A stretch of DNA of 32,000 bases, from contig OY843585.1 of assembly GCA_963692945.1 (NCBI GenBank), forward strand, positions 1,320,001 to 1,352,000, in the 5' to 3' direction. Shown here piece after piece: positions 6,070-28,623 of the stretch. This DNA is from Bdellovibrionales bacterium. Lineage in GTDB: Bacteria > Bdellovibrionota > Bdellovibrionia > Bdellovibrionales > UBA1609. Numbering within the stretch: position 1 is the stretch's first letter; each line of letters opens with the position of its first letter. The notes under the pieces are model-generated. The model was not told the origin of the DNA, did not search any database, and saw nothing but the letters and a program-made list of their open reading frames with translations. The position numbers were made by a program, and so were the translations under genes.

Positions 6070-6100
6070 AAAGCCCCACTATGATTTAATCAAAATTCTA

Positions 6101-6787: not shown

Positions 6788-6805
6788 CACTACCTCCTAG
6801 TGTTA

Positions 6806-8797: not shown

Positions 8798-8853
8798 TGC
8801 GTTCTCTCTTTTTTAATCTTATTGTAGTGAATAATTCATAACTTTGTTATAAA

Positions 8854-9111
8854 TTATTGAATATCTCCTAAAGTTTCTTTCATTTCAGGTAAAAAGTTTT
8901 TTCTTGGTTTGATGAGTTTTCCATAATTAAGATTTTTCTTTTGATATAAAGTGAAAATACTAGGTCCTAACAATTTTCCTTTAATGTGCAGCTCGTCATC
9001 AAAATTAACATCTACTACTCGGTTTTTGCGTTTAGAAGATTTTTTAGGAGCTCCTTCGCATAAAAAAGGAACTGAAAATAAAACTATAAAAACAGACAGA
9101 TACTTCATCAT
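8854..9111 (-). CDS. small secreted protein (85 aa), positional equivalent of GltF
   Basis: Clear signal peptide (MMKYLSVFIVLFSVPFLCEGA). It sits 5 nt after the upstream stop, between the large TPR gene and the FHA gene. I recognise no motif, so the GltF assignment rests on position only. Confidence 0.5.
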   Translation of the reverse strand: MMKYLSVFIVLFSVPFLCEGAPKKSSKRKNRVVDVNFDDELHIKGKLLGPSIFTLYQKKNLNYGKLIKPRKNFLPEMKETLGDIQ

Positions 9112-9116
9112 AATAA

Positions 9117-12100
9117 CTATAACCTACTTTGAATTCTTTTTGATAGTCTATTTAATTTTTCCTTAAAATTCGCTGTTTTAGAATAAAGAGATAGTTCAGC
9201 AACAAGCCCTTTGGCCTCTTCCTGCAATTTTTTATCTTCAAATCCATAGGTCAAAACGATTGCATAATTTAAAAGAACTTCTGGTCTAGGGGATGGTCTT
9301 TTAGAGAATTTTTTAAACAAAGAAAAAGCCGTTTTCCATTTCTTAATACCTAATAAAGAAGCCCCATAGTTATTTAAACTTGCTTTGGATTTTAGATTTT
9401 TAACAGACCATCTTTTTAAAATTTGTGCATAAGATTTTTTATAAAGGATAAAGGCATTGTAATAGTCATAGTTTTTTATAAAGACAGTGGCTAAATTTGC
9501 TTTTGCAATGGCATAAGAACTATCTGCAGCCAAAGCCTTTTTAAAGTAAGTTACAGCTTCACGAACATCACCATATTTTAAAGCCACAACTCCCAAATTA
9601 TTCAACAACACAGGCTTCTTACTATTTTTAGAAAGAATTCGATTCATAATAAGAGAACCTATTTTCATCTTACCATGCTTCAAATAAAAGAAAGCAAGAG
9701 AGTTAATCGCTAAAACATTATTGGAATCTTTATTTAACACATTAGAAGTTGCTTCTAAAACCTCCGATTCTTTTCCAGACCGGATAGCTTGTTCAATGGC
9801 TTCAAGGTCTTCTATTGAAACATCATATTGTAAACCTGCTGTCAGAGTACTTAAAAAACCCTTATCAATAGTTCCTTTTTTGTCAAAAATTTCTAAATCT
9901 AAAACCTCTGGTAAAACAGAAGGTGCCACAAATTTCTGAAAATCATTACCCTTAAACTCCATAGAACTTAAGCCCTCATGGATGACAGTTAACCACTCAC
10001 TATAAACTTTAAATCCTTTTGACTTCTCTAATGCCAATTCATAACTTTTAACAGCCTCTTTAATATAAGGAGCAATCAATTTTTTAATACCTTCCTTATA
10101 TTTTTTTACCCCTTGTTTATCTAACCCTTTAGGAGTTGGAGTGTTATAAATGGCTTCAGCCATTTTCTGATTGGCCAATCCTATTAAAGATAAAGAGGCA
10201 ATGATTTGCTCTCCTTCATTATAACGAATAATAGGTCTTAAATTTTGCCCCAATCTTTTTAATAGTTTTATTTTTTTCTCTACAGCTGCTTTTTGTAAAC
10301 GGGATTGTTTAGGAATTTTAATATTTAAAAATTGATTATAAATTTTTTGAACAATATAAAAATGAGATCTAGCTCCATAAGATATTCCAACACCTAATCT
10401 TTTTTGAAGAGATAAAGTCTTTTTATGCCAAACATAGGATTGCGCTTTATTTCTTAATTTTTTATTGTAAATGTTTGCAACTTTAAAAGAAGCCTTAACT
10501 AAATTCAAACGATTAGAAGAGTTAGATTTAAGATATCTACTGTAATAACCTATAGCTTTTGACCAACTTCTATTTCGCTCGTAAAGAAGTCCCATTAAGT
10601 ACAAAACCTCATAACGTTCATTGCTCTTGTTTAAAGATAAAAATTTATTATAAGAGAAAACGGCATCCGCTACATTGTTGAAAGCATCAAAAATAACACC
10701 TGCGTTATACCAATAATCAACAGATTTAGAACTTTTAGGAAAACTCTTAGCATAAAAAGCATAACTATTTGCAGCCGCTTTATAAAAACCAAGCCTCTCT
10801 TGTAAAACAGGTAAAAACTCATTGGATTTTTTACGAATATTCCAACTTTTTTTTGATTTATAAGTTAGAACAGCAGAATACATGGATATCGCTTTTTTAA
10901 TATCTTTTGCTTTTTCATAGTTGATAGCCGCGTTGTAATAAGCAACAGGAGCTAAAACCCCTGATGGATTTTCTTTTGCAAACTTATAATAAAGGTCTGC
11001 ACTTTTTTTAAATTCCTTATTCACTGCTAAGTCTTGAGCCTTCTTAAAAGAAAGTTGCTCTAATATAAAGTTAGCCTCTTTCAACAACTCCTTATCTGCA
11101 TCCTTACTATTAGAAAACTGAGTGGCTAATTTGGCTAAAGCCTTATAATCTTTATTCTTATTATAAATATCTAATAATAAACTACCTACATTACTAATGT
11201 GTTTGAAGTTAGGATACTTTTCAGATAAATCTTCAAAATGCTTAACCGACAAAGAGTACTGATTAAAATTATAATACAAAACAGCAATCCGATAGAGAAT
11301 GGAAGAAGAGTTTTTTTCATTAGGAAATTTTTTTAAATATCTTAAAGACACTTGAATAAAAGCTTTGATAGTATCTGGAAACTCAACTGCAGATGTGGTA
11401 TTACCAACTATTTTATTGATTGCCTTTTGAGAAGGAAGAGTTTTTTCTAAAGCCAAAAGCTGATTGATATAGGAAGGCTTAACATATTTTGTTTTAGGAT
11501 AATTTTTAATAACATCCTCATAAGCTTTAACGGCTTGAACATATCTTTTAGAATCAAATAGCAATTCTCCATAGAAAAAAAACATTTGAGCCGCTTGTTT
11601 AGATTTTCTAAATTCAGAAAAATATATTTTATAGAAATTCAAAGCAAGAGTCTTTTCTTTAACACTCTTTGATATACGAAAAGTTTGATGATTTTTTAAA
11701 GCATAATTCCTTAAAGTCACCTCAATAAGATTAATGGATTTTTGAACCAGGTTTTTATTTCCAGAGTTGACTCTAGCCCAAGGACTTCCTATGCCATACT
11801 CCTTAACCCATTCTTGAAATTCGTTTAAAATTTGAGAGATTTTTCCAAAATCATATATCACATGAACAATTTGATATTTATAATCAAAGGCTTCTGCTCC
11901 TGTTGGATCATGAACAATTAAATCATTAAACAAAGATCTAACACCTCTCGCATTACCCGTGTCACGGTAAGCATAAGCCAGTTTCTTTAAAGACCTCCAT
12001 GCCACCTTCTCATTTAAAAGATTAAGAAAAAAAGACTTTGCTCTTTCAGGTGGTTGTTTAGAGTAAGTGTAAAATAAAATCAAATCTTGAGTGGCTTCAG

Positions 12101-13181
12101 TAGTAAATGTGAATCTCTGGGATTTTCTATATCGAGATTTTGTTTCTTTACCCTCTCTAATGATTTGTTTTAAAATATTTAAACCTTTTGTAACATAATA
12201 CATTTTATAGTTACACCAAGCCTTTTTATAAAGTGCAAAGAAGTAAAATTTACCATTTTTATTTTTAGCGACCTTATTATAATATCTTAAAGACAACTTC
12301 CATTGTTGTTTTTTAAAATAATGCTCCCCTAACTGGAACCAAGCCTCATAGAGATAAGAACTTTTTGGAAATTGCGTTTCAAGCTCTTTAAAGTAATTAG
12401 CACCTCGTTCAAATCTAGATAATTGGTAAGAGTTAAAACCTAAGAAAAATAAAACCTCATCCAAACGAGAATGTTTAGGATATCTATTCTTAAAACTTTG
12501 GAAGATCTTTAAAGCTTTTTTATTATAAACTTCTGCCATTCTCAAACTCAAATAAGGCTTTGACTTTCTAAGACCTTGCTCAAACTCAACCATTTTCTTT
12601 TCATAATCCATCTGCAGTTTAAAAGTAATAATTCTTGATTTCTCTACATATAAACTACCTAATCGTAAAGTGAGATCGGCAGTCCGTCTTTTCTTAAGGA
12701 GTCTAAAAATATGATTGATCTCTTCATTGATGATACTTTCCAATTCGGCTTCATCTGTTCCTGAAGGATAGTAAAGTTGGGAGCTAGAAGGAGGCTTTAC
12801 CTCTTTAAGAGAGATAGATTTTTTCTTTTTTTTAAAAAAAGTTTTAATCTTTGGAATCTTAATTGTATTTGATCTTTGGAATCTTGATTTTTTTGTCTTC
12901 TTCCTTTTTGCAGCCAAATCTCTTTCAAAAATAGGATCCTGTTCTATATCTCCAAGAAGTTCGGAACTTTTTTGAGATGTCTCTCGCTCAGAAACAACAA
13001 CTTCCCCTTCTCCCCAATCGGAACTTTTTTGAGATGTCTCTTGCTCAGAAACAACAACTTCCCCTTCTCCCCAATCGGAACTTTTTTGAGATGTCTCTTG
13101 CTCAGAAACAACAACTTCCCCTTCTCCCCAAGATGAAGGAACAAGAAAAACGCACAATAAAAGTAAGAAATACTTATTCAC
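9117..13181 (-). CDS. very large secreted TPR-repeat protein, GltD/AgmU-like
   Basis: 1354 aa. Signal peptide MNKYFLLLLCVFLVPSSWG, a triple 19-aa acidic repeat, then dozens of TPR-like units (recurring A..YY/F..A...Y..G.Y..A patterns). The GTG start overlaps the upstream gene by 8 nt. Confidence 0.8.
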   Translation of the reverse strand: MNKYFLLLLCVFLVPSSWGEGEVVVSEQETSQKSSDWGEGEVVVSEQETSQKSSDWGEGEVVVSERETSQKSSELLGDIEQDPIFERDLAAKRKKTKKSRFQRSNTIKIPKIKTFFKKKKKSISLKEVKPPSSSQLYYPSGTDEAELESIINEEINHIFRLLKKRRTADLTLRLGSLYVEKSRIITFKLQMDYEKKMVEFEQGLRKSKPYLSLRMAEVYNKKALKIFQSFKNRYPKHSRLDEVLFFLGFNSYQLSRFERGANYFKELETQFPKSSYLYEAWFQLGEHYFKKQQWKLSLRYYNKVAKNKNGKFYFFALYKKAWCNYKMYYVTKGLNILKQIIREGKETKSRYRKSQRFTFTTEATQDLILFYTYSKQPPERAKSFFLNLLNEKVAWRSLKKLAYAYRDTGNARGVRSLFNDLIVHDPTGAEAFDYKYQIVHVIYDFGKISQILNEFQEWVKEYGIGSPWARVNSGNKNLVQKSINLIEVTLRNYALKNHQTFRISKSVKEKTLALNFYKIYFSEFRKSKQAAQMFFFYGELLFDSKRYVQAVKAYEDVIKNYPKTKYVKPSYINQLLALEKTLPSQKAINKIVGNTTSAVEFPDTIKAFIQVSLRYLKKFPNEKNSSSILYRIAVLYYNFNQYSLSVKHFEDLSEKYPNFKHISNVGSLLLDIYNKNKDYKALAKLATQFSNSKDADKELLKEANFILEQLSFKKAQDLAVNKEFKKSADLYYKFAKENPSGVLAPVAYYNAAINYEKAKDIKKAISMYSAVLTYKSKKSWNIRKKSNEFLPVLQERLGFYKAAANSYAFYAKSFPKSSKSVDYWYNAGVIFDAFNNVADAVFSYNKFLSLNKSNERYEVLYLMGLLYERNRSWSKAIGYYSRYLKSNSSNRLNLVKASFKVANIYNKKLRNKAQSYVWHKKTLSLQKRLGVGISYGARSHFYIVQKIYNQFLNIKIPKQSRLQKAAVEKKIKLLKRLGQNLRPIIRYNEGEQIIASLSLIGLANQKMAEAIYNTPTPKGLDKQGVKKYKEGIKKLIAPYIKEAVKSYELALEKSKGFKVYSEWLTVIHEGLSSMEFKGNDFQKFVAPSVLPEVLDLEIFDKKGTIDKGFLSTLTAGLQYDVSIEDLEAIEQAIRSGKESEVLEATSNVLNKDSNNVLAINSLAFFYLKHGKMKIGSLIMNRILSKNSKKPVLLNNLGVVALKYGDVREAVTYFKKALAADSSYAIAKANLATVFIKNYDYYNAFILYKKSYAQILKRWSVKNLKSKASLNNYGASLLGIKKWKTAFSLFKKFSKRPSPRPEVLLNYAIVLTYGFEDKKLQEEAKGLVAELSLYSKTANFKEKLNRLSKRIQSRL
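12961..13131. repeat. 57-bp tandem repeat x3 (one mismatch) inside the large TPR gene
   Basis: The unit tcggaacttttttgagatgtctct[c/t]gctcagaaacaacaacttccccttctccccaa starts at 12961, 13018 and 13075. It is in frame (19 aa) and encodes (S)SDWGEGEVVVSE[Q/R]ETSQKS. Confidence 0.95.
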
Positions 13182-14682
13182 AACTATGCTGCCCCAAATA
13201 ATGATAATTTCCTACTTCATCCAACCAAGACTCCCCATTAAAAGGCCAGTACTCATAACCATTTTGTATATAATAATTACGACTGACTTTTTCATCAATT
13301 TGCAAAGTATCCACATACCTACGAGCAATTTTCTTTTTCACATACTCCCTCTTACCTCTTAACATATCATACCTTAAATACTGTTCTGAAGTAGAAAGTC
13401 TGCTTAAATCTTTTTTAACCCCCAAAAGAATGCTCTTAATAAGCTTACCAGATATTTTTTGAGTTGTTGAAATACGAGATTTTAAAATATAACTGGCATT
13501 TCTACCCACACGATTTCTCCTCCACGATGCAGGAAGAGATTGAATAACTTCCTGTTCCTTCTTTAATTTTTCTAAATAATCTAGGTAAGATTTAAATTGT
13601 GCATTTTTCATAACTCTATGCAAAACAATAGGAGGAAGAGAAGCAAAAGCCTTATTAGAATCTCCTTTATCCTTTAATCTCTTTGTTTCCATAATAGCAT
13701 TAAAGTAAGAAGTATAAAGTTTTCCCCATCTTAAAGACTGCTTCACTTTTTTCAAGGTTGGCAAATACATAGAATTAAAAAGATCTAACACTTTTTCCAT
13801 TTCATAATACTTACATATATAAAGATACACATAAGCTCTTAAAATAAGAGATTCAGGTTGATAAAAACCCCTGTAAAAACTGGAATGAAGAGATTGAAAG
13901 TTACTTAAAGCAGAACGAAACTTTCCAGATCTTAAAAAGTTCCAACTGTTCTCCAACAAAACATCGTGAAAATATTCCGTATCTTTAGGTATAGAGCGAT
14001 AAACTTTAATGGATTCATTAAATCTTCTCCCTTGATATAAAACACGAGCCAAACCCATTAAAGCGGCTACACGGTTCGTCTCTACAACATTAGAATAACT
14101 AGAAGCTAAATCTTTAAAAAGTTGAGCTGATTTACGGATTTTATTTTCTTCTGCATAACTTAGAGCTCTATAATAAATGGCACGGCTATAAAAAGATGTT
14201 CCTCTTTTTATTTTTGAAAAATAATAGTGAGATTTTTTATGCTTACCTTTATTAAAATAAACAACTCCAAAATAAAAATACAATTTATCTTTTTGTGCAA
14301 CAGGAAAGTCTCTTTCTTTAATCTGACTGACAATGTAATAAAATAAGTTGTTATCGCCCAGGTATTCAACAATATCCGTTAATTTCTCTAAAGCTTTACG
14401 CCTATAAGCTCCTCTATTTCTTTTGATCACATAAATAAATTGAAGAGAAGCTAAGTGATAAAGTTTCATTTCCATAAAAGCAATACCTAAAGTGTATTTA
14501 ATCTGGGATCTTTTGTTACTAAAAGATCTTAATCGACTCAATCTATAAAGTTCTCTGGATCCAAGATTAAAATCTCCTTTTTCTATAAGATTTATCGCTC
14601 TACGAAGCTGCGTTCTAGGTGTTAGTGCTATAGAAGCACTAGAAAAAAAGAACAGACAAATTATAAAAAATACTTTTTTCAT
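13174..14682 (-). CDS. secreted TPR-repeat protein, GltC/GltE(AglT)-like
   Basis: 502 aa. Signal peptide MKKVFFIICLFFFSSASIA and TPR-like repeats throughout. ATGA overlap with the upstream barrel gene. Its position after the two barrel genes mirrors gltB-gltA-gltC, while its size is closer to AglT. Confidence 0.72.
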   Translation of the reverse strand: MKKVFFIICLFFFSSASIALTPRTQLRRAINLIEKGDFNLGSRELYRLSRLRSFSNKRSQIKYTLGIAFMEMKLYHLASLQFIYVIKRNRGAYRRKALEKLTDIVEYLGDNNLFYYIVSQIKERDFPVAQKDKLYFYFGVVYFNKGKHKKSHYYFSKIKRGTSFYSRAIYYRALSYAEENKIRKSAQLFKDLASSYSNVVETNRVAALMGLARVLYQGRRFNESIKVYRSIPKDTEYFHDVLLENSWNFLRSGKFRSALSNFQSLHSSFYRGFYQPESLILRAYVYLYICKYYEMEKVLDLFNSMYLPTLKKVKQSLRWGKLYTSYFNAIMETKRLKDKGDSNKAFASLPPIVLHRVMKNAQFKSYLDYLEKLKKEQEVIQSLPASWRRNRVGRNASYILKSRISTTQKISGKLIKSILLGVKKDLSRLSTSEQYLRYDMLRGKREYVKKKIARRYVDTLQIDEKVSRNYYIQNGYEYWPFNGESWLDEVGNYHYLGQHSCE

Positions 14683-15482
14683 CTATATGTTGCTCCAGGA
14701 AAATAATAACTCACACCTATAGAAAAGTTTAAATCACTATGCCACTTCAAACCTTCTATACCAGACAACTGGTAAGTGTAGAAAAACCATTTCAAATTCC
14801 AAATCAACCCAACGTTTTTATTAAGTGCAAAAACTTGACCCAATCCTAAAGAACCCGTTGGAACCCAATTTTTAACAGGTGCAGGTAAAGGGCTTTCATC
14901 CTTCAGCTCAGATTGCAATGCAGGAGTGATACCACTAGTCACTTTTGTAACTCCCCCACCTAAAGTAAAAAACATATCAAAATAAACTATATTATTATTT
15001 AAAACAGCAAATTTTCCAAAGACAGGACTCCACTTGTAATAGACTCCACCATAAGTTTGAGAAACAACAAAACTATAAGGTAATATTCTATTAGGCTCAC
15101 CAATCAAATCCCCAGCGATTATCTTTGTATTATGATACATTCCATAACCTTCTAAACCAAAACCATGATCTTCTCTTACAAAAAAACCAAGATGACCCGA
15201 ACCTCCTATAAAATAAAAGAAACTATTATTGATAGTAGAAGAAAAAGAAGCACTGATTTCTCCACGAAAAGTTTTTTGCAAATATCTTTTTTGAATAATG
15301 GAAACGGATTCAAAAGGTGTAAGGCCTTTCAAATCAGAAATAGTCTTTACTTTTAATTTCTTTAATCTTTCTAAATTCGTATCAACCGATTCCTCTATAA
15401 AATCATCTCTAGGACTCTCAGAAAAGCATAAGAAAGGCACTAAAAAAAATAGAAGTGTAATTTTTAACCCGTACTTTTTCAT
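14679..15482 (-). CDS. outer-membrane beta-barrel protein, GltA/GltB-like
   Basis: 267 aa. Signal peptide (LLFFLVPFLCFSES). Gly/Tyr-rich amphipathic beta-strand pattern (GGVYYKWSPVFGKFAVL, FFTLGGGVTKV, LGLGQVFALNKNVGLIWNLKWFFYTY). ATGA overlap on both sides. Confidence 0.65.
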   Translation of the reverse strand: MKKYGLKITLLFFLVPFLCFSESPRDDFIEESVDTNLERLKKLKVKTISDLKGLTPFESVSIIQKRYLQKTFRGEISASFSSTINNSFFYFIGGSGHLGFFVREDHGFGLEGYGMYHNTKIIAGDLIGEPNRILPYSFVVSQTYGGVYYKWSPVFGKFAVLNNNIVYFDMFFTLGGGVTKVTSGITPALQSELKDESPLPAPVKNWVPTGSLGLGQVFALNKNVGLIWNLKWFFYTYQLSGIEGLKWHSDLNFSIGVSYYFPGATYR

Positions 15483-16219
15483 ATCAACAATACAACTCCC
15501 ATATTCGCTATTAAATTAAAAATCATTCTTTTATCTTCAGCTGGAATCTGATTGTATCGCATCTCTTGAACTTCTTTTCCTAAATTTATACGAGCAGGAT
15601 TTGGACCTCTATAAAAATAAAACCCAATATCTCCACGAAGAGCAAACCACTTGTTAAAATACAATTTTTGACCAAACCCCATATTACCTGCAACTTGTTT
15701 TGTCCCATGATTAAAAATCATTAAGCCAGGCCCTATATATCCATAAATAGAAAGATTTAAAACAAACTGTTTGGTTAAACTGATCTTTCCATAGTAAGGC
15801 ACATATTTATAATTTAAAAATCCCATCATTTGAGGATAAGGAACTTTCTGCACATCAAAAGTTTTTCCATCTCTCAACCCATTACCCTCTTTAAGAGCAC
15901 GACCAGAAAAAGAATAGTCAGGATAAAAATAAGTACCTGTTAAACTAAAACCATGAATTTCTGAAATATAAAAAGCCACCAACCCTGTTCCATAGATAGG
16001 GTAATAAAAAGGTTCATCTAAACCAAAACTGATAGTTGCACCTAATTCAAATCTATTTTTTAGACTAACTCTCCTATCTAAAACCATATTTCTTGGCTGA
16101 AAAATAGGAAGCACAGCCTCCGAAGCCAATTCTTCATCTGGAAATTGTATCCGTACCGCTTCTGATGTTAATACACTAAACAACAAAAGCAGTGTAAAAG
16201 TAGACTTCAAGCTGCTCAC
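15479..16219 (-). CDS. outer-membrane beta-barrel protein, GltA/GltB-like (paralog of 14679-15482)
   Basis: 246 aa. Signal peptide (TFTLLLLFSVLTSEA). Same architecture and shared motifs with its neighbour (FELGATISFG, YGKISL, GFGQKLYFNKWFALRGDIGFYFY). GTG start with no obvious SD. Confidence 0.62.
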   Translation of the reverse strand: MSSLKSTFTLLLLFSVLTSEAVRIQFPDEELASEAVLPIFQPRNMVLDRRVSLKNRFELGATISFGLDEPFYYPIYGTGLVAFYISEIHGFSLTGTYFYPDYSFSGRALKEGNGLRDGKTFDVQKVPYPQMMGFLNYKYVPYYGKISLTKQFVLNLSIYGYIGPGLMIFNHGTKQVAGNMGFGQKLYFNKWFALRGDIGFYFYRGPNPARINLGKEVQEMRYNQIPAEDKRMIFNLIANMGVVLLI

Positions 16220-16330
16220 AGTGACTATAATAAAGACTTTTTCACACTTATTGAAGTATTCCCTTACTTCTTTAAACTATAGCTCGGCTTTAGTCTTATA
16301 AAAAGACAGATTTAAGCCAAGTGTAAAATG

Positions 16331-17236
16331 TCAGTTACTTATCTTAAAATTTTTATAAAATTCTTCTGTAAATTCTTCTTTAATGTCTTTTGGTGCAGGT
16401 AACAACCATCGCTTAGGATCTTTAAAAACAAAACCCATCATTTCTTGCATAACAGCCAAACTTTTTCCATCTATATAACGATGATTTATAGTCACACAAA
16501 ATCTCAACATATCTTTAACAACAACCTCTCTATTTTCATTTACAACAGGTCTAGGTTTTACAAGTCCTATAGCAATTAAAATGGGAACCCGACCGTAAGG
16601 TATTAAAGGAATAAAAGTATTCTCAACACCAATTTGTCCTAAATTAGAAATGGCAACAGCTCCAAAGGGATCATAAGGGACTCCCTTCAAACGAATATTT
16701 AAAGTGTAAAGTAAAAAAGCAGTTAGATCTAAAAAGTAACTCATTAAAAATGTTGGTACTTTTTTTAGCAAATTATTTTGAGACTTTATACTTTCCGATT
16801 TAATCTCTTTGGTTTCAATAATTTTTTCTTTTAATTTTTGATAAAGTTCAATCAAACTTAATTTTGTTACACCATGAACAACACAGTTAGAAAGATTGAA
16901 TTTTTTTGGATTATCCTTTTTAGTTATAGCCACCATATAAGAAATACTAACCTCATCCCTTTGATAAAGAACTCCTGCTCTTAAAATAGTATTCAATTGA
17001 GGACGAACTGCAAAAATCAAAGCAACGGCTTGAGAGATTATGTAGGTAGGCGTTAGTTTAATCCCTTTTTCTTTTAACACCCAATCTGTTAACTCCTGAG
17101 CTTTTTCATAGTCCACATCAGACCAATGATAGATAGAAGGATCTTTAGCATTTTTCCAAGAACCAATAGCCAATCTTTGATAAGTGGTTAACTTTTTTAT
17201 TCTACTTAATTTAAGATGCTTCATCCTTGACAACAC
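16331..17236 (-). CDS. stand-alone 2-oxoacid-dehydrogenase-E2/CAT-fold acyltransferase catalytic-domain protein
   Basis: 301 aa. A C-terminal INHRYIDGKSLAVMQ matches the E2 catalytic DHRxxDG motif with His and Asp-Gly retained and the first D changed to N. No lipoyl or E1/E3-binding domain is present. GTG start at 17236; ATG at 17224 is an alternative. Confidence 0.68.
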   Translation of the reverse strand: MLSRMKHLKLSRIKKLTTYQRLAIGSWKNAKDPSIYHWSDVDYEKAQELTDWVLKEKGIKLTPTYIISQAVALIFAVRPQLNTILRAGVLYQRDEVSISYMVAITKKDNPKKFNLSNCVVHGVTKLSLIELYQKLKEKIIETKEIKSESIKSQNNLLKKVPTFLMSYFLDLTAFLLYTLNIRLKGVPYDPFGAVAISNLGQIGVENTFIPLIPYGRVPILIAIGLVKPRPVVNENREVVVKDMLRFCVTINHRYIDGKSLAVMQEMMGFVFKDPKRWLLPAPKDIKEEFTEEFYKNFKISN

Positions 17237-17282
17237 ATGTATTGCGTTCCTTATTTTTATTTTACACTTTTAAGATTCATTT

Positions 17283-17981
17283 TCAAGTTCTTTTATTTGT
17301 AGCTACTTGCATTTTGAGGATGCGACGAGATAGATAAGGCACGATATAGTAAATGCCTATAGCAACAAATACACCTATCAAAGCATCTAAAAGAAAATGC
17401 TGTTTTACAAAAACAGTAGATGTTGCTATTAGAATAGCTAAAAATAAATAGATTCTCTTATAGCTTCCTTTTTCCCATAAATAAAATCCAATAATAAGAG
17501 AATGCATGACATGAAGACTAGGAAAATACAAACCGTTAGGATCATGGTTATAAATCCAAGTCAAAATATCTAATAAAAAACCCTGTTCCTGATCAAAGAG
17601 AGGAATACGAGAGTTCACCGATATAGATATTGTAAAAGACAAAATGTAAGTACAAATTGAAGCTATAGCTAAACTCAATGACAGCATTTTTTCTTTCATT
17701 TTTTTCATTGGAATAAAAATAGGGATGAGTATTAAAGGACCATATAAAACATAAGGGATAACCATTGGAATAACAAGTGGAACAGAAAGATCTATCCATA
17801 ATTGAGGAGTCCACCAATGCAAATTGTAGTCCATACTTACCCTACTAAAAAAAGTATAGGTTACAAATTGAAAGACAATATATAAAGCATAACAAGGGTT
17901 AAAAGTAATCGGAATCTTGTTGTATAAAATATTATCAATATTTTTGATAGATTTATTTAACTTGGCCATTGGTTTTTTCAT
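17283..17981 (-). CDS. PAP2-superfamily integral membrane protein (PAP2_3 / sphingomyelin- or IPC-synthase-like)
   Basis: 232 aa with about 6 TM segments. C2-like motif YFPSLHVMHS (PSxH) and C3-like motif VFVKQHFLLDALIG (H[YF]xxD). An AAGGA SD lies 8 nt before the ATG. Confidence 0.62.
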   Translation of the reverse strand: MKKPMAKLNKSIKNIDNILYNKIPITFNPCYALYIVFQFVTYTFFSRVSMDYNLHWWTPQLWIDLSVPLVIPMVIPYVLYGPLILIPIFIPMKKMKEKMLSLSLAIASICTYILSFTISISVNSRIPLFDQEQGFLLDILTWIYNHDPNGLYFPSLHVMHSLIIGFYLWEKGSYKRIYLFLAILIATSTVFVKQHFLLDALIGVFVAIGIYYIVPYLSRRILKMQVATNKRT

Positions 17982-17993
17982 CTTAACATCCTT

Positions 17994-18506
17994 TCATGTT
18001 GTTTGTTGATTTATGTATGGATTGCTTGTTACTAAAGATATAAAAGAATTTGTATAAGTTTTACCTGATAACAAATGACGATAGTTATAATAAGGATAAC
18101 CCCTCCATTCTGACTTTAAATCTTTCGCTAATTTTTTATCAATTTCTCTATCCCCTATAACAAGATGGATTTTTTTATTACAAAATTTAGATACCTCTTT
18201 TGCTGTTTTTTTATGAGGGAAACTAGAATGAAACAAAACTTTAAAATTTGACAAACTTTTAAGTTTGAAATCTGTGATAGGATAAGAGGAGTAAAAAAAT
18301 ACATTGTCTTGACCAAAAAACTGAATAAGAAAATTTATTCTCTCTTTGATATGAGAAGAGTATTTAAGAAAGACTTTATCTGCATTTGCGTATAACAAAT
18401 TTGAATCTTTCAATAAACTATAAAATAAAGAAATCACATGAGCTCTTTGAGATAAAGCCAGTTCCGAATAACTGTATAAAGTGCAATCCATATCAACTAC
18501 AACCAT
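17994..18506 (-). CDS. HAD-superfamily hydrolase (putative phosphatase)
   Basis: 170 aa. N-terminal motif I VVVDMDCTLY (DxDxT) and a distal motif IV LVIGDREID (GDxxxD). Overlaps the upstream gene by 14 nt. Confidence 0.6.
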   Translation of the reverse strand: MVVVDMDCTLYSYSELALSQRAHVISLFYSLLKDSNLLYANADKVFLKYSSHIKERINFLIQFFGQDNVFFYSSYPITDFKLKSLSNFKVLFHSSFPHKKTAKEVSKFCNKKIHLVIGDREIDKKLAKDLKSEWRGYPYYNYRHLLSGKTYTNSFISLVTSNPYINQQTT

Positions 18507-19248
18507 GTAGCACTTTCCCCTTTTGCATCTTTAAAAAAATAGGATGACACCAAGATATTGTTATCAACTCATTACAGGGCTGAATATGATTTTTAAAAAA
18601 CCCAACCGTCATTTTATCTTTTTTAGATGAAAACTTATACGCTTCTTTTTTTAAAGCATAATCATTACTGTTGTTGACATCTCTAATAATATAATCACCT
18701 GTTGTTTGAGTTGATATTGTCTGAGATAAAAAACGACTTAACTTCATAGATAAAGAAGTCCCACTTAAATACGAGAGACTTTGTTCATTTTTAATCTTAG
18801 GCCAATTGAAACTAAAGTTTGTCTTCCTGATTTTCAAAAAACTAACAGGCGTACTGCACTTAGATGTAAAAAGTAATCCTAAAACCCAAACAGAAATAGG
18901 GTTAATTATTTTCCGATCTTTTAGAAAATGATAGATAGATTTAGAAAGAGAAGTAAGAACGGCCTGACCTCTAATACTCTCATCTACAACTGTTAAACCA
19001 TAATGAAATATCGGAATTTTTAAAAATTTATAAGAAGCAGTATAATATGTAAAAAAAGAAAAAGCCATTATCTCATTATTTTCTTTATTAAAAAAAAAGC
19101 CAATGATCTTATATTTTTTAAATCTATGATCTAAATACTCCTTTGTAATCGTTTGAAGATTTCTCTTTGATAGATTGTAAAAAGCATTAAAAAAATATCC
19201 CTTGTCTCTATCTGACAATTCATCAATCATTAAACTTTTAAATTCCAT
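18493..19248 (-). CDS. hypothetical protein, possible GNAT-fold N-acyltransferase
   Basis: The ATG at 19248 has AGGA 5 nt upstream; the track's TTG at 19263 is less likely. The segment MAFSFFTYY...IFHYGLTVVDESIRGQAVLTSLSKSI resembles the GNAT beta4-alpha3 (R/Q-x-x-G-x-A) region. The functional call is weak. Confidence 0.45.
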   Translation of the reverse strand: MEFKSLMIDELSDRDKGYFFNAFYNLSKRNLQTITKEYLDHRFKKYKIIGFFFNKENNEIMAFSFFTYYTASYKFLKIPIFHYGLTVVDESIRGQAVLTSLSKSIYHFLKDRKIINPISVWVLGLLFTSKCSTPVSFLKIRKTNFSFNWPKIKNEQSLSYLSGTSLSMKLSRFLSQTISTQTTGDYIIRDVNNSNDYALKKEAYKFSSKKDKMTVGFFKNHIQPCNELITISWCHPIFLKMQKGKVLHGCS

Positions 19249-19259
19249 ATTGTTCCTAT

Positions 19260-20294
19260 TCAAAAACTGGACTTTAAAGTTTGCTCTATCTTATTAAAAA
19301 GAACATCTGAAACACTAGTAACCCTCAAAAAATTCCAAGCCTGTTTACACCTCACAATAATTTTAACAGAATACAAAAATTTCACAAAAAGGTTTCTATC
19401 CTCTAAAACACCTTCCATTAAAAAGAAATTCCCACCTTTAGAATCTAAAGATGGCACCTTTAAAGACAAGCCTTTCTCACTAGATATTTTTTGAAATAAC
19501 TGAGCCAATCGTGTTCTATTGTTCCATATCTGATTCCTTTGATCTTCATAAAAACTTTTATTTCTCAAACAATCTAAAGCAATAAGTCTAGAAAAAGTTC
19601 CAACCGTTTTTTGATTGTAATCTTTTTGAAAATAATGAATGATTTTGGAATTAGCACTCAAAACAAAAGCCATTCTTAGCCCAGCCATAGGGAAAGACTT
19701 ACTAAAAGACATAACTATCACAACATTTTTATAAGCCAAAAGTCTTTGTATATAATCATCTATTTTATAATGGCTATAAAATAAATAAGTTGTATCTAAA
19801 ATCCATAAAGAATTTTCAGAAATCTTAATGTCATTTTCTAATGTCTCAGGAGAAATCTCTTCACCTGTAGGATTATTAGGAAAAGAGATATAGATTATTT
19901 TATTTTTAAATTCAGATTTTTCTGACTTTGAATCTGATTTTGAAACAGTGAAACCTAGTTTTTCTGCAAAATGCAGAAAGTGATCGTAAGTTGGAGAAAA
20001 ATAAACATGAACTTTATCATAAATTTTGTTCAATTTATTTATAAGCAAAATATGAAACAAAGCCTCATCCGCTCCATTGGCTAAAGCTAAGTTTTCAACA
20101 GGAGCATTTATAGTTTTTGATATTTCTAAAATTAAACTAGGGTCATCTACATTGGGATAATATTTTAGAAACTCTATGCTGTTTTTTAAAACAGCAACTG
20201 TTGATGGAGCCACTTCACCATGATATTCATTAAAATCCAAACAATTGTAATTCAAAAAATCAGAAGGTCTATTTTGATATTGATAGTAAGTCAT
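19260..20294 (-). CDS. class I/II PLP aminotransferase, HisC/CobD-like
   Basis: 344 aa. NGADEALFHILL, SFPNNPTGEEIS, WILDTTYLFY, and the PLP-lysine motif MSFSKSFPMAGLRMAFV. ATG with an AAGGA SD. Confidence 0.85.
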   Translation of the reverse strand: MTYYQYQNRPSDFLNYNCLDFNEYHGEVAPSTVAVLKNSIEFLKYYPNVDDPSLILEISKTINAPVENLALANGADEALFHILLINKLNKIYDKVHVYFSPTYDHFLHFAEKLGFTVSKSDSKSEKSEFKNKIIYISFPNNPTGEEISPETLENDIKISENSLWILDTTYLFYSHYKIDDYIQRLLAYKNVVIVMSFSKSFPMAGLRMAFVLSANSKIIHYFQKDYNQKTVGTFSRLIALDCLRNKSFYEDQRNQIWNNRTRLAQLFQKISSEKGLSLKVPSLDSKGGNFFLMEGVLEDRNLFVKFLYSVKIIVRCKQAWNFLRVTSVSDVLFNKIEQTLKSSF

Positions 20295-20484: not shown

Positions 20485-21201
20485 TTAGGCTAGCTTCTCA
20501 GAATGACCATCAAAAAGTTGCGTTCTTTTCCAAAGAGGCCATAACCACTTTAAGTCTTCGTCGTACTCTAAAAAATCCCTAGTGGAAACCCCGATAGATT
20601 TCATATAATCTTCCAAGCTATTTTCATGAGGGCATAAAAAACGATAGATCTGGTTTCCCATTTTCTGATCCTTGTTTAAATCTTGATCTACATATTCCAA
20701 AATACTTTTAAAAGAACAAGAGTTCATTTTGTTTTTTAGATTTGTTAAACAAAACTTTTTTGTTTTATTATCATAATAGGATTTTATCTTGATAAGTGAT
20801 AAATTTTGCTGATGGATTTGATGGTCATTTGTTAAATTTAAGATTTCATCCTCAAAAGAACGACTGTCAGAAAGAACTGAAATCAATAAACTAGGTCCTA
20901 AAATATAGTCAGGCCATCCCATTTTTGAGATGTAACGATCATACAAACCCATGCTGACTAAAAAGTGAGCCACCTCAGTTTGAGGAGTTCCTCTTAAAGT
21001 TGTTATATCTTGAGTCAAGCAATAGACCCAAATAGGAATATTGATATTATTTTGAAATAACAATTCTCTATATTGCCTCAATCTACTTAAAACTTCAGGC
21101 ACTTTAAATAATTGTATATAAAAATCATTTCTTGTTAAAATCTGAGGTTTATTTAGGACCAATATAGAATTTTTTTCTGATATTTTTTCTAAATCTAACA
21201 A
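20485..21201 (-). CDS. hypothetical protein, remote/degenerate FabD-like (acyl-carrier acyltransferase fold?)
   Basis: 238 aa with a TTG start after GAGGG. Collinear resemblance to E. coli FabD: ILVLNKPQ vs FVFPGQGSQ; TPQTEVAHFLVSMGLY vs TWQTQPALLTASVALY; WPDYILGPSLLISVL vs APAMMAGHSLGEYSAL; LCPHENSL vs VPSHCALM. The GHSxG nucleophile elbow is not intact. Confidence 0.4.
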   Translation of the reverse strand: MLDLEKISEKNSILVLNKPQILTRNDFYIQLFKVPEVLSRLRQYRELLFQNNINIPIWVYCLTQDITTLRGTPQTEVAHFLVSMGLYDRYISKMGWPDYILGPSLLISVLSDSRSFEDEILNLTNDHQIHQQNLSLIKIKSYYDNKTKKFCLTNLKNKMNSCSFKSILEYVDQDLNKDQKMGNQIYRFLCPHENSLEDYMKSIGVSTRDFLEYDEDLKWLWPLWKRTQLFDGHSEKLA

Positions 21202-22130: not shown

Positions 22131-22775
22131 TTATCTAATACCAAACTCTCTTAACTTCTTAATCATGGGTACATTATTTATTTCAGTAGCTATCTCTAGA
22201 GATTTTCTTGCCTCTTCACCTGTCACATCTATTACTCCCGTATTTAATAAGGTTTCAACTACATCAGTACCTATTCTATTTGTATTAACAGCATATAGAA
22301 GTGCTGTCATTCCATAATTATCTTGCAAGGTCAGATTTGCTCCCAGCCTAATTAAAGTTTCAACCATAAAGCCATTATTTGCAACAAATGCAGTTGACGC
22401 TTTCATAAGAGCTGTTCTTCCTATCTTATCTCTTGCATTCGGATCTGCTCCTGCTCTAACTAATGATCTAACAACATCTGTAGCATCATAATTTACATAT
22501 CTACTATGACTACTAGGATACAAGAAGTCCCTAAAAAAACCAATATTATTACTATTCCTAAACTGCTCAGCAGCTACCGTAATAAATGGTCGTCCATTTA
22601 TATCTCTTGCATTCGCATCTGCTCCTGCTACAATCAATTCCTGAACAAGGTTCACATCACTTTCAAAAAGTGCATTAAACATTTCTTGATTTAGACCCTC
22701 ATTATTTACAACTTCTGTCGCTTGAGTTGTTACTGAAAAAAACACAACCGACAATAACATTAAAAAACTTTTCAT
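22131..22775 (-). CDS. secreted ankyrin-repeat protein
   Basis: The ATG at 22775 is preceded by AAGGAGG; the track start at 22814 lies upstream of the SD. Signal peptide MKSFLMLLSVVFFSVTTQA. At least 3-4 ANK units (GADANARDINGRP, GADPNARDKIGRTALMKA, GANLTLQDNYGMTALLYAV). Confidence 0.85.
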   Translation of the reverse strand: MKSFLMLLSVVFFSVTTQATEVVNNEGLNQEMFNALFESDVNLVQELIVAGADANARDINGRPFITVAAEQFRNSNNIGFFRDFLYPSSHSRYVNYDATDVVRSLVRAGADPNARDKIGRTALMKASTAFVANNGFMVETLIRLGANLTLQDNYGMTALLYAVNTNRIGTDVVETLLNTGVIDVTGEEARKSLEIATEINNVPMIKKLREFGIR

Positions 22776-23006
22776 AAATACCTCCTTACTTATGTAAAAA
22801 ATTCTCCATTTCACCCCGTGTGAAATTTTAAGATAAAACTAACAAACTCTTAAAAAATTTCAAGAAAAAAACCAAAAAAAAAAAAACGATCTAAATATGC
22901 TCTAAAAAGCATTTTTTCACCTTATTTTTTGAAATTTTTACATTTTGGTTTTCAAAAAGTAAGATGCGAAAACCAGTAGGTTTTCTCTAGTTCACTATAA
23001 GTAAGA

Positions 23007-25827: not shown

Positions 25828-26616
25828 ATGTCACAGGGTTTTCTCTATAAATTCTTGTTTAATGAAGTAATAATGTCTTTTAAAAAAATATTTTTCAATA
25901 AATATTTAAGTCTTTCCTATTTACTGCCGACATATAAAATAATGGAAGCCCGAAATTATGCTCATCAAAATGATTTGGAATCTTTTTTTGGAGATCACTC
26001 TTCTTTTAAAATTCATCAAAACATATTTACTAATACTGGTATCTCAGCAATAACCAATTGGTTCCGATATACAGGTCATATGGTTCCCAACCACTATGAC
26101 ATCAAAACCAACAGAGATGAAGTTATTGGTTCTATTACAGAAGAAAATCGGGGGTGGATTCCTTTCGTATTTAAATCGGCTTTTTTAAAAAATAGACGAC
26201 CTACTCACTTTACTATTAAGGATTCCAATCAAAATGTCATTTTAACTCTTTATCGTCCTTTTCGCTTTTTATTTTCTACCTTGATTGTAAAAGATAGTGA
26301 AGGGCAAGTTTTAGGTTCTGTATCACAAAGGTTTTCTCTTTTTCATAAATTTTATGAATTTTACACCAGAGGAGCTAAGCCTTTTGGATTTATTAAATCT
26401 TCGTTTGTCCGTTTATGGACTTTTCCTATAATGAATAATCGTAAACATCCTATTGGAGAAATTAAAAAACAATGGGGTGGAGTGGCAAAAGAAAGTTTAA
26501 CCTATGCTGATTCTTTTACAATCAAATGGGAATACAATGTTTCTCTGGAACAAAAAATCATTTTATTTGCAGGAGCTATCAGTATTGACTTTGATTACTT
26601 TGAACGCTCTGAGTAG
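25828..26616 (+). CDS. phospholipid scramblase (PLSCR/PF03803-like) family protein
   Basis: The C-terminal GEIKKQWGGVAKESLTYADSFTIKWEYNVSLEQKIILFAGAISIDFDYFE is collinear with the eukaryotic PLSCR signature G.I.KQWsG..rE.FTDADnFgIqFP.dLdvk.KAvllGA.FLIDFmfFE. The start is uncertain (candidates at 25828, 25873 and the MEARN Met), and none has an obvious SD. Confidence 0.78.
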   Translation: MSQGFLYKFLFNEVIMSFKKIFFNKYLSLSYLLPTYKIMEARNYAHQNDLESFFGDHSSFKIHQNIFTNTGISAITNWFRYTGHMVPNHYDIKTNRDEVIGSITEENRGWIPFVFKSAFLKNRRPTHFTIKDSNQNVILTLYRPFRFLFSTLIVKDSEGQVLGSVSQRFSLFHKFYEFYTRGAKPFGFIKSSFVRLWTFPIMNNRKHPIGEIKKQWGGVAKESLTYADSFTIKWEYNVSLEQKIILFAGAISIDFDYFERSE

Positions 26617-26758: not shown

Positions 26759-27622
26759 TTAGATTTTCTTTACATTGACATGCACTTTTAATTGATCTGT
26801 TACACTCCCTTTAAAAGAACCTTTATGAGGAGGCACTTCTTTATAATCTTTTCCAATAGCTATTTTAATATGTCGAACATCTACTAATTTATTGTTGGTC
26901 GGATCAAAACCTATCCAACCTAAAGAAGGCAAATAACACTCACACCAAGCGTGGCTTTCATTTGGTAAGTGAATCAGGTCATCTCCTGCTTCCCCATGAT
27001 ACAAATAACCTGAAACATATCTAGAAGGTATCCCCCAAAAACGAGCAATAGTTATCATAACATGAACATAATCTTGGCAAACTCCTTTTCTAGTCATTAA
27101 AATCTCTTCAATGTGTGAATTGGCATGAGTACTCTTTGGACTGTAAGTGAAAATAGAAAAAATTTTTGCATTCAAACTCTTTAAGCTCGTTAGAGGATCT
27201 GATTGCTTTTCTATCCCTTCATCTGTTAAAAAACTTTTTAATTTATCAGAAAATTTTGTAAAGTATCCAAACTGCAACCAATTCCAAAATAGATTACTTT
27301 GACTCATTTTTTTTAAATCCTCCCAATTTTTTTCACTCAATGAATCAGGGTATTTTTTAGGAGTTTTAACAGTCGCTTGAAATGAAGATTCAATTTTTAA
27401 ATAGATATGATCTTGTAAAATATTAAAAAAATGTTTCGTATTACCATAATAATCTTTGTAATGAAAAGTTTTAGCCGACGGAGTGATTTCTAAAAGATAA
27501 TTTTCTATTGCCTGATTTTCATCTTGTAAAGGCATCATACTTAAAACAAGAATATTTTCCCGAACAGGTTTATTATAAAAAAATTCAGTTGAGTGCTCTA
27601 TGGCATAAGAATATGTATCCAT
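26759..27622 (-). CDS. transglutaminase-like cysteine peptidase (Bact_transglu_N + transglutaminase core)
   Basis: 287 aa. Catalytic Cys in RKGVCQDYVHVMITIARFWGIPSRYVSGY, then His/Asp in ESHAWCECYLPSLGWIGFDPTNN. Confidence 0.9.
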   Translation of the reverse strand: MDTYSYAIEHSTEFFYNKPVRENILVLSMMPLQDENQAIENYLLEITPSAKTFHYKDYYGNTKHFFNILQDHIYLKIESSFQATVKTPKKYPDSLSEKNWEDLKKMSQSNLFWNWLQFGYFTKFSDKLKSFLTDEGIEKQSDPLTSLKSLNAKIFSIFTYSPKSTHANSHIEEILMTRKGVCQDYVHVMITIARFWGIPSRYVSGYLYHGEAGDDLIHLPNESHAWCECYLPSLGWIGFDPTNNKLVDVRHIKIAIGKDYKEVPPHKGSFKGSVTDQLKVHVNVKKI

Positions 27623-27624
27623 TT

Positions 27625-28611
27625 CTATTGCTCAGCTTTTACAAGGCCATCAAAACTACTTTGATTAAAATAAATTTCATTAAGAGTTTTGTCTATATTC
27701 AAAGACTCTTCATAAAGAGAATTTAAAAATTCTTTTAAATTCTGTTGATTAAAATAACCCTGTGTTAATTTTTGATCTATATCTTTTAAAGGTTTAAAAA
27801 CAGCTGTATCAGATTTTCCTTTTTTTTCAATAACAGAAAGAGATTCTCTCATCCTATCCTTACAAAACCTAAGTGAACCAGTAAATCCAGGAGAGTGAAG
27901 TAAAAACTCTGTAACTTTAGAGAGTGTTAAATCTAAAGAGTAAACTTGACGATAATTATCAAACGCTCCACAGCGAACCAAAAAACCCATTAAATCTGAT
28001 TCCTCCTCTTTGTGACCCAACAAGAAATGAATATGACTTTCAAACAAAGCCACTGTATTTTGAAATCTTTCAAGATAACGTCCTATCTGAATAAAATGCA
28101 CTACCTCGTTTTGATAAACTGAATCTTGAACTAAACCAGAAAAAAGATAACTAAATTCTAAAATATCTTTATAAAGATCAATGATTTTGCTAGGCCAAAG
28201 GTTTTGTAAATCCAATGATTTAACTCGCAAATAAATTTTATTTATAGGTGGCCACATTGATTTTGGAATTGTGGCTTGGTTCTGACGAGCATTCTCTCTT
28301 ACAAATTCCAAACAATTTAAAATAGAACCTTGATGATAAGTTTCAAATGTAAGATAATCAACTAAAGTGTAAGCATCAGCCAATAAAAAATCATCAGAGA
28401 TTTTGTTATTTTTGTCATTACTAGACAATAGATTCTCTCCTAAACTTTGTACACGTAAACTCCTAAAGAGCCCTTGCCAACTGGCAGACACAAAATCAGG
28501 AGAGTCCTCGGGTATCTCTTCAATCTGAACTAGAAGAAGACGGGAGATACAGTGAGATCTTTCCACATATCTTCCTATCCAATAAAAATCACTAGCAACA
28601 CGAGATAACAT
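27625..28611 (-). CDS. alpha-E domain protein (DUF403)
   Basis: N-terminal LSRVASDFYWIGRYVERS and a second FIQIGRYLERFQNT, the conserved ER motifs of alpha-E proteins. The ATG at 28611 is preceded by AGAGGTG. It stops 2 nt before the transglutaminase ATG. Confidence 0.85.
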   Translation of the reverse strand: MLSRVASDFYWIGRYVERSHCISRLLLVQIEEIPEDSPDFVSASWQGLFRSLRVQSLGENLLSSNDKNNKISDDFLLADAYTLVDYLTFETYHQGSILNCLEFVRENARQNQATIPKSMWPPINKIYLRVKSLDLQNLWPSKIIDLYKDILEFSYLFSGLVQDSVYQNEVVHFIQIGRYLERFQNTVALFESHIHFLLGHKEEESDLMGFLVRCGAFDNYRQVYSLDLTLSKVTEFLLHSPGFTGSLRFCKDRMRESLSVIEKKGKSDTAVFKPLKDIDQKLTQGYFNQQNLKEFLNSLYEESLNIDKTLNEIYFNQSSFDGLVKAEQ

Positions 28612-28623
28612 CAAAACACCTCT

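Follow-up and report, generated by a model that had tools for sequence, protein, structure and literature searches.

Bacterial ceramide synthesis proceeds through serine palmitoyltransferase (Spt), a GNAT-type ceramide synthase (bCerS) and CerR, together with an acyl carrier protein (ACP) and an acyl-ACP synthetase, and sphingomyelin and inositol phosphorylceramide (IPC) synthases are of the PAP2_3 type. Membrane lipids also arise by N- and then O-acylation of a small amine, as in the case of OlsB/OlsA and the N-acyl amino acid synthases. Here we describe a five-gene cluster that has elements of both, in the genome of an uncultured, predatory Bdellovibrionales bacterium (positions 1,320,001 to 1,352,000 of contig OY843585.1, assembly GCA_963692945.1; this whole stretch of 32,000 nucleotides (nt) is referred to as the window). 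The cluster encodes a HisC-type pyridoxal phosphate (PLP) enzyme (hereafter AT), a GNAT-fold protein, a small HAD-like protein, a PAP2 membrane protein and a stand-alone acyltransferase with the E2/CAT fold. The components are all of known superfamilies. No curated pathway model corresponds to the set as a whole, one of its proteins, the GNAT, belongs to a new and very rare family, and a search of the literature found no paper on this gene combination. We propose, with a probability of roughly 0.4, that the cluster could provide a two-part, clade-restricted route to an envelope lipid or head group built on an N-acylated (possibly N,O-diacylated) amino alcohol.

A further point of reference is the amidation of the HS:2 capsule of Campylobacter jejuni, for which Cj1437 transaminates dihydroxyacetone phosphate (DHAP) to serinol phosphate and Cj1436 is a serine phosphate decarboxylase (PMC11800397). 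The amide ligase Cj1438C then forms the amide, after which the HAD enzyme Cj1435 removes the phosphate (PMC11800397).

Organization of the cluster

The five genes of the cluster, each given as an open reading frame (ORF) with its length in amino acids (aa), and the spacer that follows them are:

19260-20294, minus strand: AT344, HisC-type PLP enzyme, 344-aa ORF
18493-19263, minus strand: orf256, GNAT-fold protein, 256-aa ORF (251 aa from the ATG at 19248, which is the public-database form P0032)
17994-18506, minus strand: orf170, small HAD-like protein, 170-aa ORF
17283-17981, minus strand: PAP2_232, PAP2/PAP2_3 membrane protein, 232-aa ORF
16331-17236, minus strand: E2_301, E2/CAT-fold acyltransferase, 301-aa ORF (297 aa from 17224, which is the database form P0001)
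16220-16330, minus strand: spacer between the E2 gene and the first barrel gene of a gliding (glt) cluster, 111 nt, which can be aligned at the nucleotide level with three related loci (L012, L013 and L014)

Counted from the start at 19248, the GNAT gene is separated from the AT gene by 11 nt, and it overlaps the HAD-like gene by 14 nt. Gaps of 12 nt and 46 nt separate the HAD-like gene from PAP2 and PAP2 from E2, respectively, and the first beta-barrel gene starts at 16219. Terminator-like sites were not identified in any junction of the cluster or in the spacer. The G+C content is 27-31% all along the window, with no compositional break. An earlier note on this DNA had described five co-oriented, tightly packed minus-strand genes at these positions and spacings, ending 111 nt before a co-oriented barrel gene; all are present in the ORF list, and the coordinates agree.

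An exact look-up of the window PAP2 and E2 proteins returned no identical record. The PADLOC anti-phage models identified no families among six proteins, and a reading of the cluster as a defence system was dropped for lack of such matches.

Conservation and loss among relatives

The relatives of the cluster are found in uncultured Bdellovibrionales-type genomes with G+C contents of 31 to 54%. A scan of genome contigs with the E2 alignment recovered two loci, a word-indexed search with PAP2 recovered six close relatives only, and scans of metagenome contigs with GNAT and E2 found nothing. The cluster is confined to a small clade of uncultured relatives, within which it is modular and easily lost. 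The loci that carry the GNAT gene are arranged as follows:

Window: AT-GNAT-HAD-PAP2-E2-glt
L008: AT-GNAT-HAD-PAP2-E2-FadD-like ligase
L001: AT-GNAT-PAP2-E2
L015: AT-GNAT-PAP2-E2, flanked by Transposase_31/Rpn-type fragments
L010: AT-GNAT-HAD-PAP2, then a divergent E1alpha/E1beta pair
L011: AT-GNAT-HAD-PAP2

The order AT-GNAT-(HAD)-PAP2 is kept in all six of these loci despite unrelated flanks. This is good evidence for a functional link among AT, GNAT and PAP2 and, in most cases, E2. E2 adjoins in four (the window, L001, L008 and L015), the HAD-like gene is present in four (the window, L008, L010 and L011), and PAP2 is the sole gene that no arrangement of the cluster lacks. Relative to the window proteins, the orthologs are identical at 48-53% for AT, 38-45% for GNAT, 53-58% for the HAD-like protein, 36-41% for PAP2 and 54-60% for E2. 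In L015, Transposase_31/HTH_Rpn_C fragments at 8336-8563 and 12507-13918 bracket AT-GNAT-PAP2-E2, which suggests that the four-gene block moved as a unit. Given orthologs of all five genes in the same order in other genomes, and selection on PAP2 and E2 (see below), the five-gene cluster is real and not a product of chance.

In L008, E2 is followed, at a distance of 2 nt, by the start of a gene for a FadD-type long-chain fatty-acid-CoA ligase (569 bits). At this single locus, the ligase hints at long-chain acyl groups, in line with the proposed lipid. The same locus encodes, between the HAD-like gene and PAP2 (8952-9116), a 54-aa ORF of which a 20-aa stretch is 95% identical to positions 3972-4031, 5 kb upstream; this stretch is probably a small repeat element.

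Genes related to the E1 subunits of 2-oxoacid dehydrogenases occur near two of the clusters. A divergent E1alpha/E1beta pair directly follows PAP2 in L010 (12178-14299; 170 and 174 bits, compared with pyruvate dehydrogenase cutoffs of 411 and 321). E1alpha/beta homologs also lie about 7 kb downstream of E2 in L008 (18266-20324), where each is split over at least three frames while both their neighboring genes and E2 are intact. The idea that E1alpha/beta are obligate partners of E2 was rejected, as they are adjacent in one locus and frameshifted in another.

The three closest relatives, L012, L013 and L014 (E2 identities of 83%, 79% and 76%, respectively), share synteny with the window that extends from clpB/ribE across orf238 (the gene upstream of the cluster), PAP2, E2 and the whole glt cluster. 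AT and GNAT are absent from all three, and the collection that contains these assemblies holds no GNAT relative with more than 45% identity to the window protein. In L012, a deletion extends from the orf238 stop codon to codon 15 of the HAD-like gene, thereby removing the DxDxT motif; the remnant (8742-9203) lacks the first 14 codons and has an altered C-terminus. L014 retains a 39-aa fragment (8974-9090) in the spacer between orf238 and PAP2, and no remnant is left in L013. Because they were lost jointly, AT, GNAT and HAD appear to form one dispensable module, and we count the joint loss in favor of the proposed two-part route. The earlier note had asked whether the five-gene set travels together. 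It does, in that AT, GNAT and PAP2 are contiguous in 6/6 loci, but the set is not an obligate five-gene unit, given the losses in L012-L014, the arrangements in L010 and L011, and the lone E2 genes of two further loci, L007 and L009.

Predicted activities of the encoded proteins

We assign AT344 to the HisC/CobD branch of the fold-type-I PLP enzymes, as a predicted aminotransferase or possibly a decarboxylase. The protein matches Aminotran_1_2 (PF00155, E 6.6e-22). The best NCBIfam match, to hisC (TIGR01141), scores 123.6 bits and is below the equivalog cutoff of 276.55, as is the match to the CobD L-threonine-O-3-phosphate decarboxylase (TIGR01140; 94.6 bits, cutoff 290.55). The nearest PDB sequence is HisC of T. 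maritima (E 6e-16), and AT344 is 27% identical to the E. coli enzyme. In an alignment with six cluster ATs, the E. coli HisC residues Y20, Y55, D85, Y110, N157, D184, Y187, K214, R222, R322 and R335 are all invariant. We take R322 and R335 to hold the substrate phosphate, and the roles of the other active-site residues to be those of the published HisC structures. Since the PLP lysine and these two C-terminal arginines are kept, the substrate is likely phosphorylated; the phosphate-binding arginines would tie AT to a phosphatase, a point in favor of the proposed route. Alpha-oxoamine synthases (Spt/KBL/BioF) were not identified among the 30 PDB matches at E<=1e-3 or among the top NCBIfam matches. 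Thus, AT344 is not of the Spt type.

Sequence and profile searches of Pfam, NCBIfam and PDB returned no match for the protein encoded by orf256, and the best result for any member of its family in Pfam was one of 15 proteins at E 0.15, to Acetyltransf_10. The fold was settled by structure only. The AlphaFold2 (AF2) model (pLDDT 85.6) has 62 Foldseek matches in PDB at E<=1e-3, and the best 50 of the 62 are all GNAT-fold acetyltransferases or probable GNATs (probability 0.99-1.0). The top matches are arylalkylamine N-acetyltransferase, NatD and GNA1 (E 2.5e-5, probability 1.0), with R98-G99 at the position expected for the loop that binds the pyrophosphate of coenzyme A (CoA). Based on this model, orf256 encodes a GNAT-fold acyltransferase of a new, unnamed and very rare family, which comprises 15 database proteins (15 representatives at E<=1e-3 in an exhaustive search of 1.84e9 proteins). 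That the top structural matches are amine N-acyltransferases, including glucosamine-6-phosphate N-acetyltransferase, is counted in favor of the proposed route.

We consider orf170 to encode a putative HAD phosphatase, based on motifs only. The HAD motifs occur in order (DxDxT at residues 5-9, S73/S74, K100 and G118-D119...D123) and are invariant in four orthologs, and profile matches were not identified in Pfam (to E<=10), NCBIfam or PDB. Comparison with E. coli HisB-N/GmhB by hhalign gave a probability of 3%. Hydrophobic segments are lacking in the AT, GNAT and HAD-like proteins.

In contrast to these three, PAP2_232 has several hydrophobic segments and is polytopic. Its Pfam matches are to PAP2 (32.1 bits, gathering threshold (GA) 27.2) and PAP2_3 (29.1 bits, GA 27), and undecaprenyl-diphosphate phosphatase is matched weakly (E 2.5e-4). 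The residues P154-S155-x-H157 (motif C2), H160 and S188-T189-x5-H195-x3-D199 (motif C3) are invariant in nine orthologs. Motif C1 (KxxxxxxRP) is not present in these nine proteins, in which R125 alone is invariant, with no lysine at -7 and no proline after the arginine. We predict that PAP2_232 is a lipid phosphate phosphatase or a phospho-headgroup transferase, and the pattern without C1 is that of the transferase-like PAP2_3 branch.

E2_301 matches 2-oxoacid_dh (PF00198, 63.4 bits) and lacks a lipoyl or E3-binding domain in Pfam. Its scores are below all NCBIfam E2 equivalog cutoffs (at most 39.6 bits, compared with 378-722). The AF2 model (pLDDT 86.6) aligns with E2 cores in Foldseek (E 9e-15, TM up to 0.82), to which it adds a helical hairpin (148-178) and a C-terminal helix (282-296). 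In the E2 alignment, S197 is nearly invariant (threonine in P0029), H252 and G257 are invariant, and D256 is aspartate in 15 of the 18 proteins and glutamate in P0015, P0016 and P0020. The motif is [DN]HRx[IV][DE]G, with the Ser/His/Asp catalytic set kept. Judged by the model and the domain content, the protein is a stand-alone E2/CAT-fold acyltransferase that consists of the catalytic domain only. The window E2 and its two closest relatives have NHRxxDG and more distant members have DHRxxDG; the catalytic histidine is kept in both. A membrane anchor at the hydrophobic stretch 160-180 was considered and rejected, as the hydropathy is below the transmembrane level and the stretch is modelled as a helical hairpin.

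The superfamilies agree with those named in the earlier note, including its guess at a GNAT fold, which the structure bears out, and its reading of PSxH and HFxxD motifs in PAP2; the HAD assignment holds on motifs only. The same note had not recognized a described pathway in the set, and indeed no NCBIfam equivalog cutoff was reached and alpha-oxoamine synthase matches are lacking.

Proposed pathway

What was observed comprises the enzyme superfamilies, the conserved order of the genes, the loss of one module and the absence of a conserved link to glt (see below); every chemical step that follows is predicted. In the first part of the route, the HisC-type AT would make a small amino-alcohol phosphate, either by transamination of a keto phosphate (e.g., DHAP to serinol phosphate) or by acting on a compound like histidinol phosphate. 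The GNAT protein would then acylate the amine of this compound from acyl-CoA, and the HAD-like protein could strip the phosphate from the amide product. In the second part, at the membrane, the PAP2_3-type enzyme (His/His/Asp, no C1) would add or remove a phospho-headgroup, and the CoA-dependent E2/CAT-fold enzyme may O-acylate a hydroxyl. Both PAP2 and E2 persist where the first part is missing, so they would also need a substrate that is independent of it. The route borrows its logic from the C. jejuni capsule enzymes, which we count as a precedent. Also in its favor are the conserved gene order between unrelated flanks, the polytopic PAP2 with its C2/C3 residues and no C1, as in PAP2_3 transferases, and the Ser/His/Asp set of E2.

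Several observations weigh against this route. PAP2 and E2 are intact in L012, L013 and L014 despite the absence of AT, GNAT and HAD, with dN/dS values of 0.13-0.30 (approximate, as dS is near saturation) that are like those of flanking genes. Since the pair is kept under purifying selection after the loss, its function appears to be independent of the AT-GNAT-HAD module. E2 is not adjacent to the other genes in L010 and L011, and it stands alone beside fliA in L007 and L009. The top structural matches of the GNAT protein are acetyltransferases, and it may use acetyl-CoA as acyl donor, in which case the product would be soluble. Both Pfam scores of PAP2_232 are marginal, just past the gathering thresholds. 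The HAD-like call depends on motifs, and L001 and L015 lack the gene. AT keeps HisC residues D85 and Y110, so histidinol phosphate itself could be the substrate. Finally, we infer the product, be it a lipid or another compound, only from the genes.

The alternative that survives best, which we nevertheless consider rather unlikely, is that two unrelated units adjoin. AT-GNAT-HAD would then be a soluble small-molecule module (e.g., for an N-acetylated amino alcohol or amino-acid derivative) and PAP2-E2 a housekeeping system for remodelling of envelope lipids, with no shared product. The deletion of the module next to an intact PAP2-E2 pair in L012, L013 and L014 is consistent with this, as are the lone E2 genes of L007 and L009, the acetyltransferases that head the GNAT structural matches and the lack of hydrophobic segments in AT, GNAT and HAD. 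However, in all six loci PAP2 comes right after AT-GNAT-(HAD), with short gaps and differing flanks, and the AT-GNAT-(HAD)-PAP2-E2 block recurs in the window, L001, L008 and L015. The transposase-type fragments that bracket the L015 block are as expected of a unit.

Decoration of an envelope glycan or of lipid A is unlikely. Here, the amino-alcohol phosphate made by AT would be placed on a surface polysaccharide or lipopolysaccharide, PAP2 would dephosphorylate lipid A or undecaprenyl diphosphate, and modification of the glycan would fall to the acyltransferases. The Cj1435-1438 capsule system, which forms serinol and ethanolamine amides, uses the same logic of PLP enzyme and HAD enzyme, GNAT and CAT-fold enzymes often acylate sugars, and the weak undecaprenyl-diphosphate phosphatase match of PAP2 points the same way. 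Genes for a glycosyltransferase, flippase, ATP-grasp ligase or polysaccharide export are not found beside the cluster in the 10 loci examined, however, and PAP2 lacks the C1 motif that is typical of phosphatases.

Quite improbable is an amino-acid-derived acyl route, in which AT would deaminate an amino acid to a 2-oxoacid, the divergent E1alpha/beta and the E2-like protein would convert it to acyl-CoA, and GNAT would transfer the acyl group to an amine. The L010 E1 pair occupies the usual position of E2, L008 has its E1 homologs downstream, and aromatic aminotransferases are among the members of the HisC family (PDB 4r2n). Nonetheless, E1 cannot pass an acyl group in the established manner to an E2 that has no lipoyl domain, the window and eight other loci have no E1 genes, those of L008 are broken while E2 is intact, and both phosphate-binding arginines are kept in AT.

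A histidine-pathway remnant, with AT as the HisC of the genome and orf170 as the histidinol-phosphate phosphatase, is very improbable, since, although hisC is the best NCBIfam and PDB match of AT and every mapped HisC active-site position is kept (D85 and Y110 included), AT scores far below the hisC cutoff (123.6 vs 276.55 bits) with 27% identity to the E. coli enzyme, no other his gene occurs in the window or 10 related loci, AT always precedes the GNAT and PAP2 genes and is deleted in the three closest relatives, and orf170 is unrelated to HisB-N/GmhB (hhalign, 3%) and absent from L001 and L015.

Gliding genes and other neighbors

The genes that adjoin the cluster in the window are:

5018-16219, minus strand: complete Glt/Agl-type gliding cluster, downstream of E2, with two OMP_myx_plus barrels, a GltC-like protein, a 1354-aa TPR protein, a GltG-like protein, a TolQ-like protein and two TolR-like proteins
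20485-21201, minus strand: orf238, upstream neighbor, with no Pfam or NCBIfam match, outside the conserved cluster

The glt assignments are based on scores of 60.9 and 60.7 bits to TIGR04565 (cutoff 60), 125.8 for GltC and 137 for GltG, along with TolQ and TolR matches. Adjacency of glt to the cluster is limited to the window, L012, L013 and L014, which are shallowly diverged and fully syntenic from clpB/ribE on. In L001, L007, L008, L009, L010, L011 and L015, homologs of the window glt genes were not identified by tblastn. As it is confined to four shallow syntenic genomes, the adjacency is no evidence of function, and the link of the cluster to the gliding machinery drawn in the earlier note is unsupported. 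Two proteins of 1333 aa and 644 aa upstream in L001 were considered as counterparts of the 1354-aa TPR protein and GltG, and tblastn shows no relation.

At L007 8055-10906 and L009 8461-10888, a lone E2 gene lies 10-27 nt downstream of fliA (TIGR02479, 256 bits, cutoff 189.6), which is preceded by a FliL-like gene. E2 thus has motility genes as neighbors in two settings that are independent of each other, glt and fliA, which could easily be chance. A 367-aa ankyrin protein is encoded near the E2 gene of L009.

Upstream of the cluster are orf238, ribE, a gene for an ankyrin protein and clpB. Homologs of orf238 (59-71% identity) lie upstream of PAP2 in L012, L013 and L014 and are absent from L001, L008, L010, L011 and L015. 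The ankyrin-repeat protein (22131-22814, minus strand, 227 aa) has a hydrophobic N-terminus and is encoded between ribE and clpB. At the 5' end of ribE there is a perfect 64-nt tandem duplication (21902-21965/21966-22029), a length that is not a multiple of 3, and the longest ribE ORF (GTG at 21981) begins within the upstream copy. The repeat arose either by recent duplication or through misassembly.

Further along, the window encodes a eukaryote-type phospholipid Scramblase (25828-26616, plus strand; PF03803, E 5.4e-30, no NCBIfam model), a lipid-related gene 5.5 kb from the cluster. Three genes at 26759-30093 (minus strand) encode a circularly permuted ATP-grasp protein (CP_ATPgrasp_2, E 8e-156), an Alpha-E domain protein and a transglutaminase-like protein. 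The seemingly ORF-free region 30100-32000 is occupied by an ORF that runs past the end of the window, and it has no Rfam or tRNA match.

Significance

If the product is a membrane lipid, a HisC-type enzyme, and not serine palmitoyltransferase, would be the starting point of a route to amide-linked, ceramide-like lipids. A stand-alone E2-fold enzyme would then have a role in lipid acylation, and a new GNAT family would enter lipid or head-group biochemistry. Such a lipid might account in part for the unusual envelope chemistry that has been reported in predatory Bdellovibrionota. The reach of the finding is limited to a handful of uncultured genomes, with a part of the cluster readily lost in close relatives and no conserved tie to gliding.

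A bolder form of the proposal, which we regard as a long shot, is a novel class of envelope lipid. This would be an Spt-free mimic of sphingolipids or phospholipids built on a serinol-type amino alcohol, with a HisC-type enzyme, N-acylation by GNAT, O-acylation by E2 and a headgroup from the PAP2_3 enzyme; the location of E2 near glt or fliA would then reflect a role in membranes of motility organelles.

Comparison with known systems

Compared with histidine biosynthesis (HisC/HisB-N), HisC is the closest relative of AT by both sequence and structure, and its mapped active-site residues are all kept. The differences are that AT scores under half the equivalog cutoff, has no his context and is dispensable in close relatives, and that orf170 is unrelated to HisB-N/GmhB. 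The E2 cores of 2-oxoacid dehydrogenase complexes share with E2_301 the catalytic fold (TM up to 0.82) and the Ser/His/Asp set. Unlike them, E2_301 lacks a lipoyl or peripheral-subunit-binding domain, misses the cutoffs more than tenfold and carries the extra hairpin and C-terminal helix, and its usual neighbors are PAP2 or fliA instead of E1/E3. The likeness to sphingomyelin and IPC synthases (SMS/AUR1) is restricted to the PAP2_3 match and the absence of C1.

The C. jejuni module is similar in the predicted order of steps, from a PLP enzyme through an amino-alcohol phosphate and an amide to dephosphorylation by a HAD enzyme; the two are likened by logic alone and not by sequence. The amide here would be formed by a CoA-dependent GNAT and not by an ATP-grasp ligase, the acceptor would not be a glucuronate polymer, capsule genes are not found nearby, and the HAD assignment is at the level of motifs.

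With the ceramide route, the cluster shares a PLP enzyme of PF00155, a GNAT N-acyltransferase and a C1-less PAP2_3 enzyme, and, in L008 only, an AMP-forming acyl ligase. However, AT is of the HisC type and is not an alpha-oxoamine synthase, so it is predicted to be unable to make a long-chain base by Claisen condensation. A CerR-type reductase and ACP are lacking, and the cluster has an E2/CAT-fold enzyme in addition. In OlsB/OlsA and the N-acyl amino acid synthases, as is predicted for the cluster, an N-acyltransferase and then an O-acyltransferase act on a small amine to build a membrane lipid. Here there is no NCBIfam match to those families, the candidate O-acyltransferase has the E2/CAT fold rather than being of the PlsC type, and the amine would be made on site by the PLP enzyme.

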